Sequence record: PX969468.1 | From: a phage | Direction: 5' to 3' (one strand) | DNA: 64,000 bases | Shown here: positions 46,866 through 56,367 of the stretch, one piece after another | Numbering within the stretch: position 1 is the stretch's first letter | Layout of the letters: every line of letters starts with the position of its first letter | Notes under the pieces: generated by a model | What the model saw: only the letters and a program-made list of their open reading frames with translations | The model's database searches: none | What the model was told of the DNA's origin: nothing | Position numbers and translations under genes: made by a program

Positions 46866-46894
46866 TTGACTATTGTTACAAAATTTGGTAAAAT
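46866..46894 (+). promoter_or_regulatory. sigma70-like promoter TTGACT-17-TAAAAT with TGG extension
   Basis: read directly. Confidence 0.55.
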
Positions 46895-46927
46895 ACCTTG
46901 TAGAGATTTTCATACCGGAGGAGTGAC

Positions 46928-48429: not shown

Positions 48430-49116
48430 ATGGCAGAGATTAAGTCGGATGTCAACCACATCCACACTCTGCCAGATTTTGTTCAGGGAGGTCTTGATTA
48501 CCTGCCTGGGGATTTTCTGGCTGAGAAGGTTAATTTAGTCACATTCTTAACCGTGTACCTTAAAAGGTTGGAGAATGTTGATAAAATACTGGTAGGCTTG
48601 GCTGAAGGAAGATTGCTTAACAATGCCAGCGGGAGATACCTTGACGAAGTTGGTAATCAACTTGGTATCCTTAGGAATGGTCTTTCAGACGCGGATTTTC
48701 GTGCTACGCTGATTATTCAGCAGGCAGCATCATCAAGAGGTGGTACTCGCGAAGATGTCATCTCCACCTTACGACAGTTGTTCGGAAGAGATAATTTCGA
48801 TACGTGGAAAGGTGACAATTTCAGGTTTGACATAAACATTAGAAAAACTTGCTTTGACATATTGCAGTCTATCGACCAGATCTTAGATATGCTGCCATTG
48901 CCTTGTCATTTGCGTCTTACGGAATCGCAAGGGCAAGCTTTTGGTTTTGAAGGGGACTCTGCAGCTCTCGGCTTCGGATCAGTGTGGGAAGAAAACCAGT
49001 TCGGGGTTGGTGGGTTGGCTACTTTGTTATATGTTCCTGACGTAAGACCTGATTGGGACACCACAACTATTTATTGTGAAAGTATTACAGTAAACGCAAC
49101 TAGACAGGAGGGTTAA
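48430..49116 (+). CDS. baseplate/tail structural protein
   Basis: 228 codons. Confidence 0.4.
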   Translation: MAEIKSDVNHIHTLPDFVQGGLDYLPGDFLAEKVNLVTFLTVYLKRLENVDKILVGLAEGRLLNNASGRYLDEVGNQLGILRNGLSDADFRATLIIQQAASSRGGTREDVISTLRQLFGRDNFDTWKGDNFRFDINIRKTCFDILQSIDQILDMLPLPCHLRLTESQGQAFGFEGDSAALGFGSVWEENQFGVGGLATLLYVPDVRPDWDTTTIYCESITVNATRQEG

Positions 49117-51188
49117 TGGCAATAGCTGTTTTTAAACCTTACCGTGATTACTCTACAATGGCTGCACGGTTTCATTACCGCACAGTTCAAGATACTGCAG
49201 TTCCAGGTAGGGATTATGATCATGTTGAGGGTGATATAACTATTCCGGTTGGGGCAACCAGTATTGAGATTCCTGTAGAAATTGTTGACAAATTGCCAAA
49301 CAGGTTGCCAAGAAGCTTCTTTATGGAGTTTTCATCAAACTCCCAAGGGGTTATGATTGGAACACAAAGAGCGAAATGTACAATAGTTTCAGATGAGAAT
49401 CTTGACAGAATATCTTGGGATACCGTTGAGGAGAGAATGTTTCACCCAAGATACTGGGTTACAACCACACAGCAGACTGAAAGCACCTGTATTGTTGCGG
49501 ATAATAACTGCTGTATTAACCGTTTAGTGTCAAGAACATATGGAGGCATGGCTGGGTGCATTTGGGAAACAGTTGACAAGTATGACCATTTCGGTATTGG
49601 ATTTGATGATCACTACGAGATGAGAAACACCAAGCTTTGGTTCAGAATGTCAATAACCAATGCCAGCAACTTTTCCACCCCTGAAAAGATGATTATGACT
49701 GTAGACCTTGTTGATGGTACAATCATCTATGTTCCTTTAGCTCAATATGCTGTCAGCATCTCAGAGGATAAGAATGTTGCAGAAATTCATATTGATTTCG
49801 AGGACTGCGTCGGGATGGACCAGAACAACAACATGATGGGTGTTGATCCTCGGCAGGTGAGAAGGATTCTAATACCACTTATGCCTAAAGATTGGGTAGG
49901 TAATAGCACAGACCCGAGAACGGAAAATGTAGAGTGTGAGCTGCGTCTAGATCTGCTTCAGCCGGACACAGGCTGGAAAATGATGCAACTTAACAATATC
50001 CAGGTGAAAGAGCACGACGTCGGGATCTGCACAGCATATGACGATATGTGGAACGTATCCCCTTTAAGGGTGTTGAGCAATATCAAGCGCCTTGGCTATA
50101 CCGGAACCATAAATCATTATGTTGGTATGAGTCATTATTATGACTACACATGGTCAGGAACCCAATGGTCTATAAACAAAACAGGGGCTCTAAACGCTGC
50201 AGCTTATAAATGGCATGATGATTTTATGTACAATGCCAAACGACATGACTTCGACGTTATGCAGTCTGTAAGCTTTGAGCTTTATAGCGATGCCTGCCCG
50301 TTGGAATGGACCCAGAGAGACTGGAACGATAACTATGCTAAAACAGGCTATACGCCTTGTAGTTACCTCCTGTCTCCAACCATTGAAGAGGGTATGAATT
50401 TCCTTACTGCGGTATTTAAGAATTTTGCATCAGCCGCTATGAGAAACAACCTGCCAGTGATTATGCAGATTGGTGAACCGTGGTGGTGGTTCAATACCGA
50501 TACTCGTAAGCCTTGTATTTATGACTACCCTACAAAGCAGGCGTTTTATGATGAGACTGGTGAATATGCACTAGACATTGGGACTATTGACGATCCTAAA
50601 ACTGGCGGTGTTTATGACAAGTATGTAGCATTTTGTCGTGGTAAGCTTGGCGCTCGTATTGCAGCCATTTCAAAGGCAATAAAAGCACACGCTGCATCGG
50701 CTCAGATGACAGCTTTACTGTTTTTCCCCACTATTATGGAAACCGAGCTTACGCAAAAACTGAACCTTGCTGACCAATATAAAAAGGAAGCAGGTGCTCT
50801 TGATTTCTTCTGCACTGAGTGCTACGATTGGGTGATGCAGGGAGGTATTGAAAAGGCAAAAGAGTCTGTAAACATACCTATCGTTAAGTTAGGTTGGAAA
50901 CCGTCTGAAATACAATACCTTGCAGGGTTCGTTCCTAGCAAAGAGCTTGCTCCGGTATATGGCTACGACCCAACCAGGAATTACCAAGAATTTTTATGGA
51001 GATGTATTTGCGGAAACATGGCAACCATAGAGTATAGATACCCTGAGGTAAAACAGTATGTGTGGGCATACCCGCAAGTAATGTCTGACAGCATCACTGT
51101 TACCGCTAGAGATTCTACCGTGCTTCATATGGGGCAGGTTGCTCTGAAAGGGTATGTAGAAGATGTTGTCCCGCCAGACTTCTCATAA
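49116..51188 (+). CDS. tail-associated protein, N-terminal Calx-beta-like segment (tentative)
   Basis: 690 codons; N-terminal DYDHVEGDITIPVGATSIEIPVEIVD pattern; Trp-rich C-terminal region. Confidence 0.3.
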   Translation: MAIAVFKPYRDYSTMAARFHYRTVQDTAVPGRDYDHVEGDITIPVGATSIEIPVEIVDKLPNRLPRSFFMEFSSNSQGVMIGTQRAKCTIVSDENLDRISWDTVEERMFHPRYWVTTTQQTESTCIVADNNCCINRLVSRTYGGMAGCIWETVDKYDHFGIGFDDHYEMRNTKLWFRMSITNASNFSTPEKMIMTVDLVDGTIIYVPLAQYAVSISEDKNVAEIHIDFEDCVGMDQNNNMMGVDPRQVRRILIPLMPKDWVGNSTDPRTENVECELRLDLLQPDTGWKMMQLNNIQVKEHDVGICTAYDDMWNVSPLRVLSNIKRLGYTGTINHYVGMSHYYDYTWSGTQWSINKTGALNAAAYKWHDDFMYNAKRHDFDVMQSVSFELYSDACPLEWTQRDWNDNYAKTGYTPCSYLLSPTIEEGMNFLTAVFKNFASAAMRNNLPVIMQIGEPWWWFNTDTRKPCIYDYPTKQAFYDETGEYALDIGTIDDPKTGGVYDKYVAFCRGKLGARIAAISKAIKAHAASAQMTALLFFPTIMETELTQKLNLADQYKKEAGALDFFCTECYDWVMQGGIEKAKESVNIPIVKLGWKPSEIQYLAGFVPSKELAPVYGYDPTRNYQEFLWRCICGNMATIEYRYPEVKQYVWAYPQVMSDSITVTARDSTVLHMGQVALKGYVEDVVPPDFS

Positions 51189-51200
51189 TCAGGAGATAAA

Positions 51201-52241
51201 ATGTCAAAACCTAGTTTTCCATTAGAGATTTGGGCAGAGGAGGATCAGGTTCTGCCTAACACCCACAGACAGAACAGGCTACGCCCGATTGATGATTTGT
51301 GGAGAAAAGGTTGGGATCTTGGTCAAAAGCCCTCATGTGAAGAACTTAACTATATTTTCAATATGCTCGGAACTTGGGCAAAATACATTGCTGACGAGCA
51401 GATCCCCGCTCAAGAAGGCCGTTATCTGGTACGCGATAATAACTTGAGTGATCTTTTGAACATCCCTGTTGCCCGTAGAAACCTTGGGATTATTACTAAG
51501 GAAGAGGCAGACGCCAGGTATGTAAAAGTTACAGGTGATACAATGACAGGCCCATTGGGTTTGCAACGTATCAACTTTAAAGCTGCCGAGACAGACAGGG
51601 CTTGGATAGAGACAACTATTGGCCCAGATAAGACAACTCTCGACTTTGGGTTAAGTGATAATATTGGGTCGTTTGATGATGGTGGTACATCTACAGTAGA
51701 TGCGTTTCGTTGGAGATTTCAGCCAACTCAGCCGGATATCAATCCGGAGTTCACTTTGATGTACCTTAACGCGATCACGGCTAACCGTGCGCTGTTGAAA
51801 GTGGTAGGCAATGTTGAAGTTGTCGATAACATGAGGTGCAATAACCTTACTATTAGCAATACAGCAACATTCACCAACTGTAATGTGGCTAGTCAGTTGA
51901 CGGCTGGGTCAGTGTATGTTAATGGTGGTACAAGTTGTGACAGTATGGTTGTAAGAAGTCAGCACTGTGTTGTCGGTAACAGAAATGTGGTGCGCTCTGT
52001 AAATGGAGTGACGGCTAACGGTAACGGTGATGTAACAATCACTATCCCGCAGACAGGTGTGCAAGACATCAGAATCGGTGCAAGACTTGTTGACGGCGTT
52101 TCCGAATCTCCAATTCGCAACGGCTACGTTGTCACAGGCTGGCATTTCGGTGACAAAAAAGAGATGCGTGGTTCAACCTACTGGGCAGGACCTTTACAAA
52201 AACTTGTAAATGGTCAATGGATCACTGTTAATTATGCATAG
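51201..52241 (+). CDS. tail fibre protein (paralogue A)
   Basis: 346 codons; paralogous to 53256..54299 (shared PL-IWA N-terminus, FRWRFQP core, C-terminal VNGQWITVNYA). Confidence 0.55.
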   Translation: MSKPSFPLEIWAEEDQVLPNTHRQNRLRPIDDLWRKGWDLGQKPSCEELNYIFNMLGTWAKYIADEQIPAQEGRYLVRDNNLSDLLNIPVARRNLGIITKEEADARYVKVTGDTMTGPLGLQRINFKAAETDRAWIETTIGPDKTTLDFGLSDNIGSFDDGGTSTVDAFRWRFQPTQPDINPEFTLMYLNAITANRALLKVVGNVEVVDNMRCNNLTISNTATFTNCNVASQLTAGSVYVNGGTSCDSMVVRSQHCVVGNRNVVRSVNGVTANGNGDVTITIPQTGVQDIRIGARLVDGVSESPIRNGYVVTGWHFGDKKEMRGSTYWAGPLQKLVNGQWITVNYA

Positions 52242-52255
52242 ATCGGAGGACTAGC

Positions 52256-52840
52256 ATGAAAATACTTCAAGAGTTTAAACTTTACCAACCGGGATCTGGC
52301 GAATACCACGCCAACAAGGAAACCAAAGAGCTGACCCCTCAAGAGGTTGAGGATTACACCGCATACACTGGGTATTTTTTACGTAATGATGATGGCGATT
52401 GGTATGTGCAGTCACGAACATTACGACAAGAAAATCCGGGTTGTATCTTCCTACTTGTTGACGAGAAGGGAATTCTTAAGACATCTACAGAAGAGCCTGA
52501 TGCCTTATGGCCTGCTCCAGGTCTTCGTGTGGTTATCGCCAAAAAAGAAGAGGTACCAGAAAACATTATGCTTCACCACGACGCTTTGCGTTTAGTTGGT
52601 GATGAATTTGTCACAGATAATGAATTCTTTGTTCAACAGGCAGAGGGTGTCATAGAGACAGAACTTGCTTGGGCTACTGCTAGAATTGGTGCCTATCAAG
52701 ACATGATTGACCTTGAATATGATCTTACTGATGACCAGAAACGTAACATCAGAGATTTGAAAATGTACAGGGTAAAACTTCTTGAAATAGATACATCTAA
52801 AGCCCCTGACATTTTCTTCCCGGAGCGACCTACCCTCTAA
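52256..52840 (+). CDS. tail fibre assembly chaperone (Tfa-like)
   Basis: 194 codons immediately downstream of fibre gene; C-terminal LTDDQKRNIRDLKMYRVKLLEID pattern. Confidence 0.45.
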   Translation: MKILQEFKLYQPGSGEYHANKETKELTPQEVEDYTAYTGYFLRNDDGDWYVQSRTLRQENPGCIFLLVDEKGILKTSTEEPDALWPAPGLRVVIAKKEEVPENIMLHHDALRLVGDEFVTDNEFFVQQAEGVIETELAWATARIGAYQDMIDLEYDLTDDQKRNIRDLKMYRVKLLEIDTSKAPDIFFPERPTL

Positions 52841-52851
52841 GAGGAGGTGTT

Positions 52852-53166
52852 GTGGAGTTGGATTTGGCGGCATTGTACGGTATCTGCATGGGTACCGTTG
52901 TCCCGATCTGTGTATGGGCTTTCAACCAGTGGCACACCAAATGGAAAGGCATTTCCAAGAGGTTGGATGAACTGGAGAAAGACCTCATCTTAGTGAAAAA
53001 CAGTATGGTTACAAAAGATAAACTTGATTCCGTTATCGAGACCCGGTTAAGCAAGCTAGAGGCCGATATTAACGACCTTAAGCAGGATGTCAGGACAGAT
53101 GTCTCCGGCATCCGAGCTGATGTACAAAAGATTTTGCACATGCTTGTAGAGCATAGTAAAAGGTAA
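52852..53166 (+). CDS. small membrane protein, TM helix + coiled coil (holin-like candidate)
   Basis: 104 codons; GTG start 4 nt after GAGGAGG; N-terminal hydrophobic helix LAALYGICMGTVVPICVWAF then charged helical tail. Confidence 0.35.
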   Translation: MELDLAALYGICMGTVVPICVWAFNQWHTKWKGISKRLDELEKDLILVKNSMVTKDKLDSVIETRLSKLEADINDLKQDVRTDVSGIRADVQKILHMLVEHSKR

Positions 53167-53196
53167 ACAAAGGTCAGGACGGAAAGGACTCCGTTC

Positions 53197-53225
53197 TTGC
53201 ATTTTGTTTCCTAAAGTGTTAAAAT
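53197..53225 (+). promoter_or_regulatory. sigma70-like promoter TTGCAT-17-TAAAAT with TG extension
   Basis: read directly; preceded by a short hairpin. Confidence 0.45.
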
Positions 53226-53255
53226 AGTCCTAAGGAATTTTCTCAGGAGAACGTG

Positions 53256-54299
53256 ATGACTAAACCAGTTATCCCTCTTGATATTTGGGCCAATCAGGAT
53301 GTTGTGCTTGAAAATACGGGAGAATTGAATAAGTCTCAACCAAAAAAAGAAGAGAGATTGAAAGGTTGGGATATGACACAAAGAGTGGCATGTGAAGTTG
53401 TTAACTTTGAACTTCACATGCTTTCTGCGTGGTTAAAGCATTTAACAGAAGATGTTGTCCCAGGATGGGATAATAGATTCTTAAGGGTCACTAATAATCT
53501 AGCAGACGTTCCAGACAAAGCTGCTGCACGTCAAGTTCTCAATGTATACTCGCCTGAAGAAATGGACGATCTGTATGTTGACAAGTCTGGAGACATAATG
53601 ACTCAGACTCAAACTTTAGGCCTTCAAAGAATCGAGTTTGCATCTGCGTCAACAGACAATGCGGCAATATATACCACCATAACCTCAGACAAGACGATGA
53701 TGGATTTCTGGATTATGGACAACATCGGTGGTGCTGACGGCACAGATCTTGATGATCCTTCTCACCAAATAGACGGGTTCCGTTGGAGATTTCAGCCTTC
53801 TGGTGGGCAGCCTGTGTTTTCGGCTATGAAGCTCAATGCTATAACTGCCAACCGTGCAAGACTGGCTATTCAAGGAAATCTTGAATGCAACGATGCAAAA
53901 AGTTCCTCTGCAAATGCCAATGCAGTTACTATACCAAGAGCCACTGTTAATGGTCAACAATCCTGTGGAAGCGCTCAAATAGGTGGAAGAGTTGATTGTA
54001 ACGATGAAACCGTCAGGGGCCAATATGCAACAGTTGGTGGAAGAAACGTGGTCCGTAGGGTAAATGGTAACAGCGCAGACGGTAGTGGTAACCTTACTAT
54101 TCCTATGCCTAGTAGGGGTGTTGAAGATGTAAGGATAGCAAACCGTTTCAGAACCACCTACAGAGAATCAAGAGTATACCCTGGGCATGTAATGTGCTCC
54201 GGCAATTACGCCTATAAACACCCGTATCAGGGCGACTATTGGACTGGAGCCATTCAAAAATTTGTAAATGGTCAATGGATCACTATATCTTATGCTTAA
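53256..54299 (+). CDS. tail fibre protein (paralogue B)
   Basis: 347 codons from ATG with CAGGAGA RBS; paralogous to 51201..52241. Confidence 0.55.
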   Translation: MTKPVIPLDIWANQDVVLENTGELNKSQPKKEERLKGWDMTQRVACEVVNFELHMLSAWLKHLTEDVVPGWDNRFLRVTNNLADVPDKAAARQVLNVYSPEEMDDLYVDKSGDIMTQTQTLGLQRIEFASASTDNAAIYTTITSDKTMMDFWIMDNIGGADGTDLDDPSHQIDGFRWRFQPSGGQPVFSAMKLNAITANRARLAIQGNLECNDAKSSSANANAVTIPRATVNGQQSCGSAQIGGRVDCNDETVRGQYATVGGRNVVRRVNGNSADGSGNLTIPMPSRGVEDVRIANRFRTTYRESRVYPGHVMCSGNYAYKHPYQGDYWTGAIQKFVNGQWITISYA

Positions 54300-54310
54300 A
54301 AAGAGGGTAA

Positions 54311-54577
54311 ATGAAATTAACTCAGTTTTTATGGGGGTTGGTTGCAGCATCTGATGACCCTACGAAAGTGTCCCAATCTAAGCTATGGTCAAACATAGGC
54401 ATGGCAGTGATGACTGGGGTGTTTATTCATATGGGGTACAATGATACGCTTCCTGAATGGTATGCGTGGATATATGCACCTTCAGTAGCCTGCCCCCAGC
54501 TTATTAGCAAATTCATCTCGCTCCGGTGGGGTTGCCAGCACCCTGACCACGTTAAAAACGAAGAGCAAAAAGCTTAA
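54311..54577 (+). CDS. small hydrophobic protein (membrane protein or fibre accessory)
   Basis: 88 codons; hydrophobic segments FLWGLVAA and IGMAVMTGVFIHMGY. Confidence 0.35.
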   Translation: MKLTQFLWGLVAASDDPTKVSQSKLWSNIGMAVMTGVFIHMGYNDTLPEWYAWIYAPSVACPQLISKFISLRWGCQHPDHVKNEEQKA

Positions 54578-54586
54578 GGAGAAATC

Positions 54587-56332
54587 ATGGCGCAAGACAT
54601 GACAAGCTTCGAGCAGGCGGTAGATCAAGTAATTGTTGATTCTGAACGTTTGCACTTGATTGTCAACGGTAACGCTGTGGATGAAGTTGTCGTAGAGGAT
54701 GGGACCACCATCCCTACGGTACGAAAAGCCATGCTTGACACCCTTTATTTTAAAACGCCACCAATCCCTTGGGCGTATGGTGCATCCACAACAGTTTTTA
54801 ACCAGTTGTATGAGTTTAAAGGGGATACAGGCACTCAGTGGTGGTATGCCCCAGCAGCATCAAAATCTAACCCGGTTAGGATGCCAGCAGATCCTTCACA
54901 ATCTCCGAACTGGAGATTATATACCGATTCTGCAGTAATGGCAAAATACTACGCAAAACTTAACAGTCCAAGGTTCGAAGGTGACCCGAGAGCACCTACA
55001 CCTCCAATGGACGATAAGTCCGAGTCTATAGCAAACACAGAGTTTGTTGTTGACTATGTGGATAGTATATTCAAAGCCATGGAGGGGATGAAAGTAACTG
55101 TAGGGTCTTTGGTAGTAAAAGGTCTTACAGAACTGGCTAACACCATAGTTGGTGGCACCCTTACCATACACGGGCCTGTTAATGGAGCGGATTCTACTGC
55201 ACGCTTCAGGAACCTAATCCTTACTGCAAATACTTCTACACTAACTTTTGCGTGGAGCGATCCTAAGCATGCCGACTGGAGAAGCACAGAGCTGCAACCT
55301 CATGAAGTATCCACCCACAGAGTTATAGCCGACACTATAACCTCTGGGAAACCAGTGGCTAATAACAACGATGTGCATTTTGACGGTCTAGGTAATAACT
55401 TTTTTGACTACGTGTACATTCGTGGTAATGCCATGAAGGCAGCAACCGAACCGACATTGCAGGTCGATGGGACCACTAGGGTTAAGAACCTTGAGGTGAC
55501 AGGTACCGTTACAGGGATAACCTACTCTGTCGATGGCACCATGATCTACCCTAGCTATATTGAAAGCACGGGTGACGCATTAATAAATGGTGATTTGGAG
55601 GTTGGCGGGTCTGTAGTTATTCGAGGTACGGCCTCTATCCAAAACATAGCTCTGAATACTCTCAGAGTCAATGAGCGTGCAACTTTTGAAGGAGAAGGGC
55701 TTACAGCCAACAAAGGTGTAATTACCGAGCTGACAACCACCACTTTAACTGCAACAACTGCAAACTCTGAAAACTGCAACGTTACCAGAAACTTGCAGGT
55801 AAATGGGGATGTTAGTTTAAACGCAGCAGGTACGGGCACCACCTACCTTCACAACCTTGAAATATCCGGCACAGTGACTGGTTGGCTGCCAGACTTCTCT
55901 AATGTCAACTTTGTCTGTAATGGTATTAACTCTAGTGGTAAGATAACCACCTCTCAAGAAATTGAGGCTGGTAAAACCATCACTGCCCCTACTTTCCACG
56001 CAGGGAAGGTAGATTTCGATTTAGAGGAGGTTGACGCGTCCAGTGGGACATGGACACCTAACGGGCAGGCCAGTATGTATGTTGTCCACGCTAAAGGGGA
56101 TTTTACAATAGGCCAATGGCCTGGAACATCGGCTGAAGATAAACCTTACCCGTTTACTGCAATCATCTATGTCATTCAAGATGCCGTAGGCCACAACGTG
56201 ACTTTGCACGATAAATATGCCATACTGTCGGCTACCCCTGTTATTAACAACAAAGCCAACAGCGTCACCTTGCTACAATTGACATATTGTGGTGTTGGTG
56301 ATATCGTAGATGTGGTTATTGCACAACGTTAA
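54587..56332 (+). CDS. tail fibre protein
   Basis: 581 codons; motif KLNSPRFEGDPRAPTPP resembling the conserved tail-fibre motif; Gly/Thr/Asn-rich repeats. Confidence 0.55.
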   Translation: MAQDMTSFEQAVDQVIVDSERLHLIVNGNAVDEVVVEDGTTIPTVRKAMLDTLYFKTPPIPWAYGASTTVFNQLYEFKGDTGTQWWYAPAASKSNPVRMPADPSQSPNWRLYTDSAVMAKYYAKLNSPRFEGDPRAPTPPMDDKSESIANTEFVVDYVDSIFKAMEGMKVTVGSLVVKGLTELANTIVGGTLTIHGPVNGADSTARFRNLILTANTSTLTFAWSDPKHADWRSTELQPHEVSTHRVIADTITSGKPVANNNDVHFDGLGNNFFDYVYIRGNAMKAATEPTLQVDGTTRVKNLEVTGTVTGITYSVDGTMIYPSYIESTGDALINGDLEVGGSVVIRGTASIQNIALNTLRVNERATFEGEGLTANKGVITELTTTTLTATTANSENCNVTRNLQVNGDVSLNAAGTGTTYLHNLEISGTVTGWLPDFSNVNFVCNGINSSGKITTSQEIEAGKTITAPTFHAGKVDFDLEEVDASSGTWTPNGQASMYVVHAKGDFTIGQWPGTSAEDKPYPFTAIIYVIQDAVGHNVTLHDKYAILSATPVINNKANSVTLLQLTYCGVGDIVDVVIAQR

Positions 56333-56340
56333 TATATCTG

Positions 56341-56367
56341 ACCGCTCCTGACGGGGCGGTTTTCTTA
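56341..56367 (+). terminator. terminator-like hairpin
   Basis: stem CCGCTCC/GGGGCGG, loop TGAC, then TTTTCTT. Confidence 0.45.

Follow-up and report, generated by a model that had tools for sequence, protein, structure and literature searches.

The question raised by this locus is why a phage should encode two similar tail fibres, and whether it uses them as alternatives or together. The locus occupies positions 51,201 to 54,577 of a 64,000-nucleotide stretch of phage DNA (record PX969468.1; hereafter the window), where two related short tail fibre (STF) genes, which we call STF-A and STF-B, are accompanied by a gene for a tail fibre assembly chaperone (Tfa), two small genes and a predicted promoter lying between the fibres. 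An earlier note, made from the sequence alone, had proposed that the tips are alternatives for receptor binding, that each has an accessory factor of its own and that the two may be differentially expressed. The reading that we favour, and regard as fairly probable, is of an rV5-like locus with two maintained Mu GpS-like short fibres that share one Tfa, both being mounted on the virion and providing two fixed specificities. The five open reading frames (ORFs) concerned were verified against the ORF list at the coordinates collected in Table 1, all on the plus strand.

The 8 kb around the locus is 96-98% identical at the nucleotide level to approximately 110 complete genomes of rV5-like myophages, by which we identify the window as belonging to Vequintavirus, that is, to an rV5-like E. 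coli phage. The two fibres, the chaperone and the late promoter are already published for this genus. Kropinski et al. (2013; PMC3606486) described rV5 gp33 and gp30 as paralogues with 42.3% identity, gp32 as a tail fibre assembly protein and gp31 as a membrane protein with one transmembrane domain, and found with MEME that a motif, TggTAaAAtA, precedes late genes; their Table S4 lists promoter P030 with exactly the window's promoter context. In the BASEL study, Maffei et al. (2021; PMC8594841, S5D Fig) noted a pair of paralogous short tail fibres related to Mu GpS, together with a single chaperone related to GpU, the fibre pair being without notable allelic variation. The curated BASEL genome EmilHeitz is annotated, in order, with a short tail fiber protein, a tail fiber chaperone, a hypothetical protein, a second short tail fiber protein and a second hypothetical protein, and this block is flanked by lateral tail fibre genes. 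The rV5 and BASEL Vequintavirus loci are the same as the window's gene for gene, nothing of substance differing between them, and the window is another isolate of the genus. What our analysis would add to the published work is the recognition of the small genes as a cassette, the asymmetry of the two fibre copies, the maintenance of both, and the placing of the promoter between them in the same class as others.

Consistent with the published paralogy, and with what the earlier note had claimed for the 346- and 347-codon proteins, STF-A and STF-B align end to end with 43% identity (E 3e-94) and have in common their N-terminus, the motif FRWRFQP and the C-terminal VNGQWITxxYA. A single family profile, PHROG 4465 (342 positions), matches residues 1-346 of STF-A (2e-171) and 1-347 of STF-B (2e-165). 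The further claim that the two proteins diverge in the middle proved no more than approximate: the differences are concentrated in three blocks, at about residues 51-100, 215-250 (with indels) and 281-320 of STF-A, and these are separated by conserved blocks (residues 101-200 and 251-280, with the C-terminal 20 residues also conserved). The duplication is old, as the near-saturation of third codon positions between the paralogues shows. Two patches are conserved at the nucleotide level, one around FRWRFQP (51697-51724 against 53770-53797, 89%) and one at the C-terminus (52178-52240 against 54236-54298, 79%), and a 23-nt exact run is found at the 3' ends of both fibre genes; these patches could reflect micro gene conversion or a constraint at the nucleotide level.

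Both ends of the fibres can be related to proteins of known structure. Residues 1-108 of STF-A (1.5e-19) and 1-83 of STF-B (1.9e-8) align with chain 9cuy_c, the short tail fibre of phiTE, while residues 440-501 of the Mu fibre (5yvq_A) match residues 286-343 of STF-A (5.3e-6); for STF-B, phmmer against PDB sequences gave no direct match to 5yvq. AlphaFold2 monomer models of the two fibres were of low confidence (predicted local distance difference test scores of 63 and 60) and were used for a Foldseek family check only, not for mapping residues. In that check 5yvq_A was the sole significant match for both models (STF-A, 1.1e-6; STF-B, 3.2e-6). Mu GpS/GpU resembles the window's system by sequence in the STF-A tip, by fold in both models, and in having a Caudo_TAP gene directly downstream of STF-A. 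HHpred similarity to T4 gp12 (1PDI) has been reported for the rV5 fibres, with probabilities of 98% and 97.7% (PMC3606486). We found no T4 gp12 chain among phmmer PDB matches at E<=1 or in the Foldseek top 50, the models submitted to the latter being poor. As a baseplate-attached fibre that binds the lipopolysaccharide (LPS) core for irreversible adsorption, gp12 is a functional analogue, although its chaperone is gp57A and not a Tfa.

The earlier note had named inactivating mutations in one paralogue as the finding that would speak against its proposal, and both genes are intact. We collected relatives of STF-B from GenBank phage records and from Logan/ENA contigs, a scan of IMG/VR giving four loci only. 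At least 80% of the locus is present in 114 of the 117 records, the weakest rows listed being short, fragmentary entries 3-6 kb long. For STF-A, identity is 95% or more in 116 records, and for STF-B it is 90% or more in 117. The ratio of nonsynonymous to synonymous change (pN/pS) was computed against closer relatives, since the sister lineage, whose fibre proteins are 13-23% diverged, has saturated synonymous sites and is unsuitable. It was 0.031 for STF-A, 0.067 for STF-B, 0.048 for Tfa, 0.042 for the 104-aa gene and 0.008 for the 88-aa gene, which is the most constrained of the locus, and no stop codons were found in the fibre genes in the same close-relative codon comparison. On these figures strong purifying selection evidently keeps both fibres, which are intact in about 115 genomes.

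The two copies are not equivalent, however. Outgroups carry a single fibre, which lies in the STF-A slot (Avunavirus, Seunavirus, Mydovirus and Certrevirus loci). STF-A is found directly downstream of the wedge genes (gp36/gp35-like) with Tfa next, whereas STF-B lies within a cassette of membrane-protein genes. Identity to outgroup fibres is 42-48% for STF-A and 38-40% for STF-B overall, and the difference is larger over the N-terminal 70 residues, at 59-66% and 41-47% respectively. STF-A keeps 79, and STF-B 66, of the 90 columns conserved in 22 outgroup sequences; at 31 family-conserved positions within residues 1-65, STF-A loses one and STF-B about 14. The otherwise invariant PIDDLW has become PKKEERL in STF-B, and many of its N-terminal changes are common to an STF-B relative at 77% identity, although the PIDDLW segment varies even between STF-B lineages. 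Because STF-A has both the ancestral slot and the family-typical docking domain and tip, we read it as the ancestral copy and STF-B as a derived copy with an altered N-terminal docking domain.

The claim that the two fibres carry different tips was upheld, and the difference can be localised to a 13-residue loop, TGWHFGDKKEMRG in STF-A and CSGNYAYKHPYQG in STF-B. The STF-A tip is of the type found in Av-05, NINP13076 and phi92-like phages (54-57% identity over 65 residues, with a common TGW.FG.KKE.RG loop) and is also found in Seunavirus. Between the window and its sister lineage the tip is the best-conserved part of each fibre, with 4 differences in 56 positions for STF-A and 5 in 55 for STF-B, against the overall protein divergence given above.

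To see what these fibres may do on the virion we turned to the relatives whose virions are known. The closest comparison is phi92 gp147, a full-length homologue of the window's fibres, identified in 2026 as the downward-pointing 'fibre III' (PMC13450770). As in the window, the fibre gene of phi92 and of Justusliebigvirus PHB05 is followed by Tfa and then a small transmembrane/coiled-coil protein, and the fibre docks on the wedge and points downward. The gp147 tip is 54% identical to that of STF-A over the last 65 residues, or 61% in a BLASTP alignment of STF-A residues 287-343, and gp147 is only about 23% identical to STF-B overall. Unlike in the window, the phi92 and PHB05 fibre is single-copy, and no 157-aa gene is annotated between it and the next tailspike in the fetched locus. 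The phiTE short tail fibre (PDB 9cuy/9mjn) is alike in its N-terminal docking domain, of which residues 3-92 form a trimeric joint bound to a wedge subunit present once per wedge (PMC11972413), in its C-terminal ..PIQK.VNG.W.. ending, and in its gene order of fibre, Tfa, three small membrane-protein genes and long fibre. It differs in being a single-copy, flagellotropic protein of 554 aa with a coiled-coil shaft and immunoglobulin-like distal domains.

By homology to the phiTE and phi92 virions, STF-A and STF-B would be homotrimeric Mu-like short fibres, produced late and together and both present on the virion, whose N-terminal ~90 residues dock on the baseplate wedge so that the fibres point to the cell. 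There they would serve the final, irreversible adsorption on the LPS core. STF-A would provide the receptor specificity common to the single-fibre relatives, directed probably at the LPS core, inner or outer, near the first outer-core glucose (Glc I), and STF-B a second, fixed specificity, the two being carried at once and not as regulated alternatives. The involvement of Glc I is suggested by phage LL12, which needs waaC, waaF and waaG (PMC7229145), and all tested Vequintavirinae in BASEL fail on waaC and waaG mutants (PMC8594841). Among broad-host-range E. coli phages the rV5-like ones are some of those most often isolated, and they find use in typing and biocontrol; which of the two fibres carries out the irreversible LPS-core step is of consequence for engineering host range and for the prediction of resistance. 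The STF-A tip is of a type common to single-fibre relatives dependent on the same LPS sugar, and STF-B combines a different, invariant loop with a derived docking domain.

Several observations weigh against this reading. The published K-12 genetics amount to a single LPS-core requirement, Glc I, with no second specificity. According to the text of the rV5 paper (PMC3606486), total phage proteomics detected gp30, gp32 and gp33. All three are missing, however, from the deposited table of 19 proteins found by mass spectrometry (MS), which we searched by length and molecular weight, and Table S3 of the same paper marks only gp34 with 'MS evidence', not gp30 or gp33. In the solved relatives there is one short-fibre docking subunit per wedge, an arrangement in which it is not obvious how two fibre types would fit. 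Finally, a neighbour-joining tree with 200 bootstraps recovered monophyly of STF-A and STF-B in 54%, which does not decide between an in-lineage duplication and an import of STF-B. Our literature searches found no experiments separating the two fibres and no rV5-type baseplate structure.

Where, then, would STF-B be mounted? A more specific proposal, which is possible but which we advance only tentatively, takes STF-B not for a spare copy but for a fibre that its altered N-terminal attachment domain places at a second, hitherto undescribed baseplate position or on a neighbouring fibre, giving two full sets of downward short fibres with two fixed LPS-core specificities, the promoter-plus-fibre unit having displaced a membrane-protein gene kept by every other sampled genus of the subfamily. 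A first alternative to the favoured reading is that STF-A and STF-B compete for the wedge docking site, so that the same six sites would be filled by variable mixtures, not in a fixed 6+6 arrangement, and the resulting mosaic virions would amount to a form of bet-hedging. Both fibres do keep the overall N-terminal docking domain, and the single docking subunit per wedge fits such sharing. However, the replacement in STF-B of about 14 family-conserved docking residues, and the variability of its PIDDLW segment, would be unexpected for two proteins using the same site; the altered docking domain favours a new site over competition, and we consider mosaic virions unlikely.

A second alternative takes the derived N-terminal domain further and supposes that STF-B is not a baseplate short fibre, but is attached to another fibre, for instance the gp28-like or gp27-like one whose gene follows closely in the P030 unit, as a branch or distal adhesin. 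STF-B is probably co-transcribed with the gp28-like gene, as discussed below, and a long-short fibre contact has been hypothesised for phiTE from structure predictions and low-pass filtered maps (PMC11972413). Yet the STF-B N-terminus still matches the phiTE docking domain and keeps many invariant residues, making this a quite unlikely arrangement.

The reading of two co-mounted fibres also bears on how they are folded. The earlier note's identification of a Tfa-like chaperone after the first fibre is supported by matches to Pfam PF02413 Caudo_TAP (8e-12) and PHROG 136 (2e-36). A tblastn search of the 64-kb window found no second Tfa gene, and the gene that follows STF-B encodes the 88-aa protein, which has no Tfa similarity, leaving STF-B without a Tfa of its own. 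Because no other Tfa is encoded in the module, the single Tfa (gp32) most likely serves both fibres, which it would fold through their shared C-terminal YW.G..QK.VNGQWIT segment. In Mu the chaperone remains on the mature fibre tip (PMC9608196).

The shared segment and the single chaperone might also suggest that the paralogues co-assemble as heterotrimers into one kind of fibre; we return to this after considering the small genes, for which the earlier note had offered a different account. It assigned the Tfa and the 104-aa protein to the first fibre and the 88-aa protein to the second as their own accessories, with differential expression of the alternative tips from separate promoters, and a small gene does follow each fibre, with a promoter between the two groups. 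In single-fibre relatives, however, Tfa comes after the fibre and is followed by the 104-aa gene, a multipass membrane gene of 152-157 aa, a gene of 86-91 aa and finally the next fibre, as seen in Av-05, GAP31, NINP13076, Mydo and phiTE (genera Avunavirus, Seunavirus, Mydovirus and Certrevirus). The window's 104-aa protein is 33% identical to its counterparts in Av-05, GAP31, NINP13076 and Mydo (E 1e-20 to 1e-22; PHROG 5345, 1e-48) and the 88-aa protein 50-58% identical to its outgroup counterparts (E 1e-30 to 1e-32; PHROG 1322, 3e-32). Judged by this synteny, the two are the first and third genes of a 104/157/88-aa membrane-protein cassette, conserved across Vequintavirinae, and not fibre-specific accessories.

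The distribution of the cassette genes is in keeping with this. The 104-aa gene occurs in 224 phage records (117 at >=95% identity and 107 below 60%). The 88-aa gene occurs in 369, far beyond the 117 with STF-B, and these include phi92-like, phAPEC8-like, Aeromonas and Pseudomonas phages; because the phi92-like and phAPEC8-like phages have the 88-aa protein and lack the second fibre, it is not an accessory specific to STF-B. The 157-aa gene is found in 107 records, 16 of them labelled Escherichia, as against 97 of the 117 Vequintavirus-locus records; it has no match in the window, and no Vequintavirus appeared among 30 rows sampled across the ranking of the 107. This suggests that the promoter and STF-B together replaced the 157-aa middle gene in a Vequintavirus ancestor. 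The promoter appears to have arrived with STF-B, because cassette genes 1 and 2 overlap in Av-05, GAP31 and NINP13076, with no room for a promoter. Compared with a moron, STF-B has its own promoter and sits between cassette genes 1 and 3 as a replacement and not as a pure insertion; no terminator lies right after it, the next one being 3' of the gp28-like gene.

As to what the cassette proteins are, the 104-aa protein is, as described earlier, a small transmembrane/coiled-coil protein, having a single hydrophobic segment near its N-terminus and matching coiled-coil families of Pfam weakly. The 88-codon protein is present as described but is only moderately hydrophobic, no 19-residue window exceeding 1.4 on the Kyte-Doolittle scale. 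Searches of Pfam, NCBIfam and PHROG gave no functional family for the 104-, 157- or 88-aa proteins. Lysis roles (holin or spanin) were considered for the cassette and not adopted: basic residues after the transmembrane segment of the 104-aa protein suggest a cytoplasmic C-terminal domain and not the periplasmic one of an i-spanin, the 88-aa protein is, as said, only moderately hydrophobic, and the curated relatives carry no lysis annotation.

The remaining part of the earlier account concerns expression. The promoter proposed at 53197-53225 before the second fibre looks real: TTGCAT is followed by 14 nt, TGT and TAAAATA, a 17-nt spacer that includes the TGn of an extended -10, within the 89-nt gap before STF-B. 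It corresponds to rV5 P030, and a generic promoter scan missed it, the -35 matching at 3/6 positions. The window contains eight copies of the motif TGNTAAAATA, where 0.99 would be expected, and in 100 shuffles that number was never reached. Six of the copies lie in plus-strand intergenic gaps of the structural module, all with TTG at the identical 17-nt spacing, and several of the six promoters are directly 3' of a rho-independent terminator. In the sister lineage the gap has diverged, yet TTGCAT, the spacing, TGn and TAAAATAG are kept, and in 11 of the 11 related loci checked the motif precedes the STF-B start codon by about 40 nt. The late promoters of rV5 were predicted by MEME only, and no T4-type late factors were found encoded in that phage (PMC3606486); we found no transcript data for promoters of the P030 class.

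An equivalent of rV5 P036 heads the upstream operon, which comprises the wedge gp36-like gene, the gp35-like and gp34-like genes, STF-A, Tfa and the 104-aa gene. Touching the -35 of P030 is a terminator-like but non-canonical hairpin, with its T-run displaced by TGCA and a core free energy of -10.9 kcal/mol, weaker than the clear terminators of the window (-15 to -21 kcal/mol); a hairpin is also present in the sister lineage, where the stem is a different one (-6.0 kcal/mol). We predict that P030 re-initiates transcription after this weak hairpin for STF-B, the 88-aa gene (gp29) and the gp28-like long fibre, which is probably co-transcribed, and the terminator at 56340-56361 is likely the end of the unit. 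Because predicted P030 shares its motif class with other structural-module promoters, the motif suggests the same late timing for both fibres, though amounts could differ. With the P030 motif being that of five other promoters in the module, with the 104-aa and 88-aa genes present, and the 157-aa gene between them, in single-fibre phages, and with one Tfa in the window, neither differential expression nor dedicated accessories find support, and we consider the model of alternative tips with their own accessories very unlikely. The heterotrimers raised above, for which the conserved blocks and the single chaperone could be cited, are extremely improbable, given identity of only 43%, indels in the shaft, single-copy relatives that are necessarily homotrimeric, and tips diverged in the same loop, which would make each tip asymmetric.

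Two fibres with different tips can also be alternated by DNA inversion, as in Mu, which inverts its G segment to switch S/U and S'/U'. Unlike in Mu, the window's fibres have the same orientation and one chaperone. A search for a switch of the Mu G-segment or P1 C-segment type gave only weak inverted repeats of 14-24 nt (71-86% complementarity), and no recombinase is annotated in the locus. With both fibres on the plus strand, no invertase and no significant inverted repeats, we rejected switching by an invertible segment.

Table 1. Features of the two-fibre locus and of the transcription units around it, with the corresponding cassette positions in relatives
Feature	Position	Strand	Basis
STF-A; Mu GpS-like short tail fibre of 346 aa occupying the ancestral slot, rV5 gp33 orthologue	51201..52241	+	PHROG 4465, 9cuy_c, 5yvq, synteny
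Tail fibre assembly chaperone (Tfa); rV5 gp32 orthologue, 194 aa	52256..52840	+	PF02413 Caudo_TAP, PHROG 136
104-aa membrane protein; rV5 gp31 orthologue, GTG start, cassette gene 1	52852..53166	+	PHROG 5345, hydropathy
Terminator-like, non-canonical hairpin touching the P030 -35; T-run displaced by TGCA	53176..53197	+	scan
Predicted late promoter, rV5 P030 equivalent; -35 TTGCAT 53197-53202, TGT 53217-53219, -10 TAAAAT 53220-53225, then A	53197..53226	+	motif, conservation, Table S4 of PMC3606486
STF-B; second short tail fibre of 347 aa, derived, rV5 gp30 orthologue	53256..54299	+	PHROG 4465, 9cuy_c, Foldseek, synteny
88-aa protein; rV5 gp29 orthologue, cassette gene 3	54311..54577	+	PHROG 1322, outgroup identity
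gp28-like fibre; 581 aa, phiTE_241 long tail fibre homologue	54587..56332	+	PHROG 4549
Rho-independent terminator, rV5 t028 equivalent; free energy -15.3	56340..56361	+	scan; Table S4 of PMC3606486
Predicted upstream late promoter, rV5 P036 equivalent; TTGACT-N14-TGG-TAAAATA	46866..46895	+	motif search; Table S4 of PMC3606486
Promoter family TTGnnn-N14-TGnTAAAATA (starts of TGN)	19209, 23717, 27238, 41376, 46886, 53217	+	motif search
Cassette in relatives' loci (fetched loci, numbered L)	L004 6638-7701; L005 6650-7719; L007 6536-7609; L008 6686-7755; L017 5099-6176		

Two of the start sites in Table 1 call for comment. The ORF lister opens STF-B at the GTG at 53253; AGGAG at 53245-49 lies 6 nt before the ATG at 53256, and relatives annotate STF-B with 347 aa, matching that ATG. 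The GTG start of the 104-aa gene is supported by a strong GAGGAGG upstream and by the outgroup orthologues, which are exactly 104 aa long and align with it from the first residue; in the FV3 RefSeq record (L003, 6889-7167) the orthologue is annotated 12 codons shorter, from an internal ATG. For the gp28-like fibre, the Pfam families Phage_phiTE_241_N/C were recorded on the sister-lineage orthologue, and the outgroup fibres are 40-44% identical.

The neighbouring genes gave some further observations. Directly upstream of STF-A, the gp34-like gene (690 aa, 49116-51188) encodes a Calx-beta domain together with the NCTSP_N and TIM-barrel_NCTSP domains typical of N4 gp65, a non-contractile sheath/receptor-binding protein (E 7e-80), and among the fetched loci it was present in Vequintavirus and Av-05 only. 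Its product resembles the N4 Gp65-related NGR-polysaccharide binder of a 2026 preprint for the genus Vequintavirus, exemplified by phi92 gp142. Within the sister lineage, comparison of L013 (9124-13044) with L014/L016 (9124-13044) revealed that in one contig three ORFs, of 475 aa, 183 aa and at least 1209 aa, stand in place of the giant gp27-like fibre gene (~1876 aa), which fits the reported allelic variability of the large lateral fibres. Lastly, 16 to 21 records labelled 'Campylobacter phage' (MG0656xx, host Campylobacter jejuni) are 95-98% identical here to E. coli rV5-like phages, and their host label looks doubtful.

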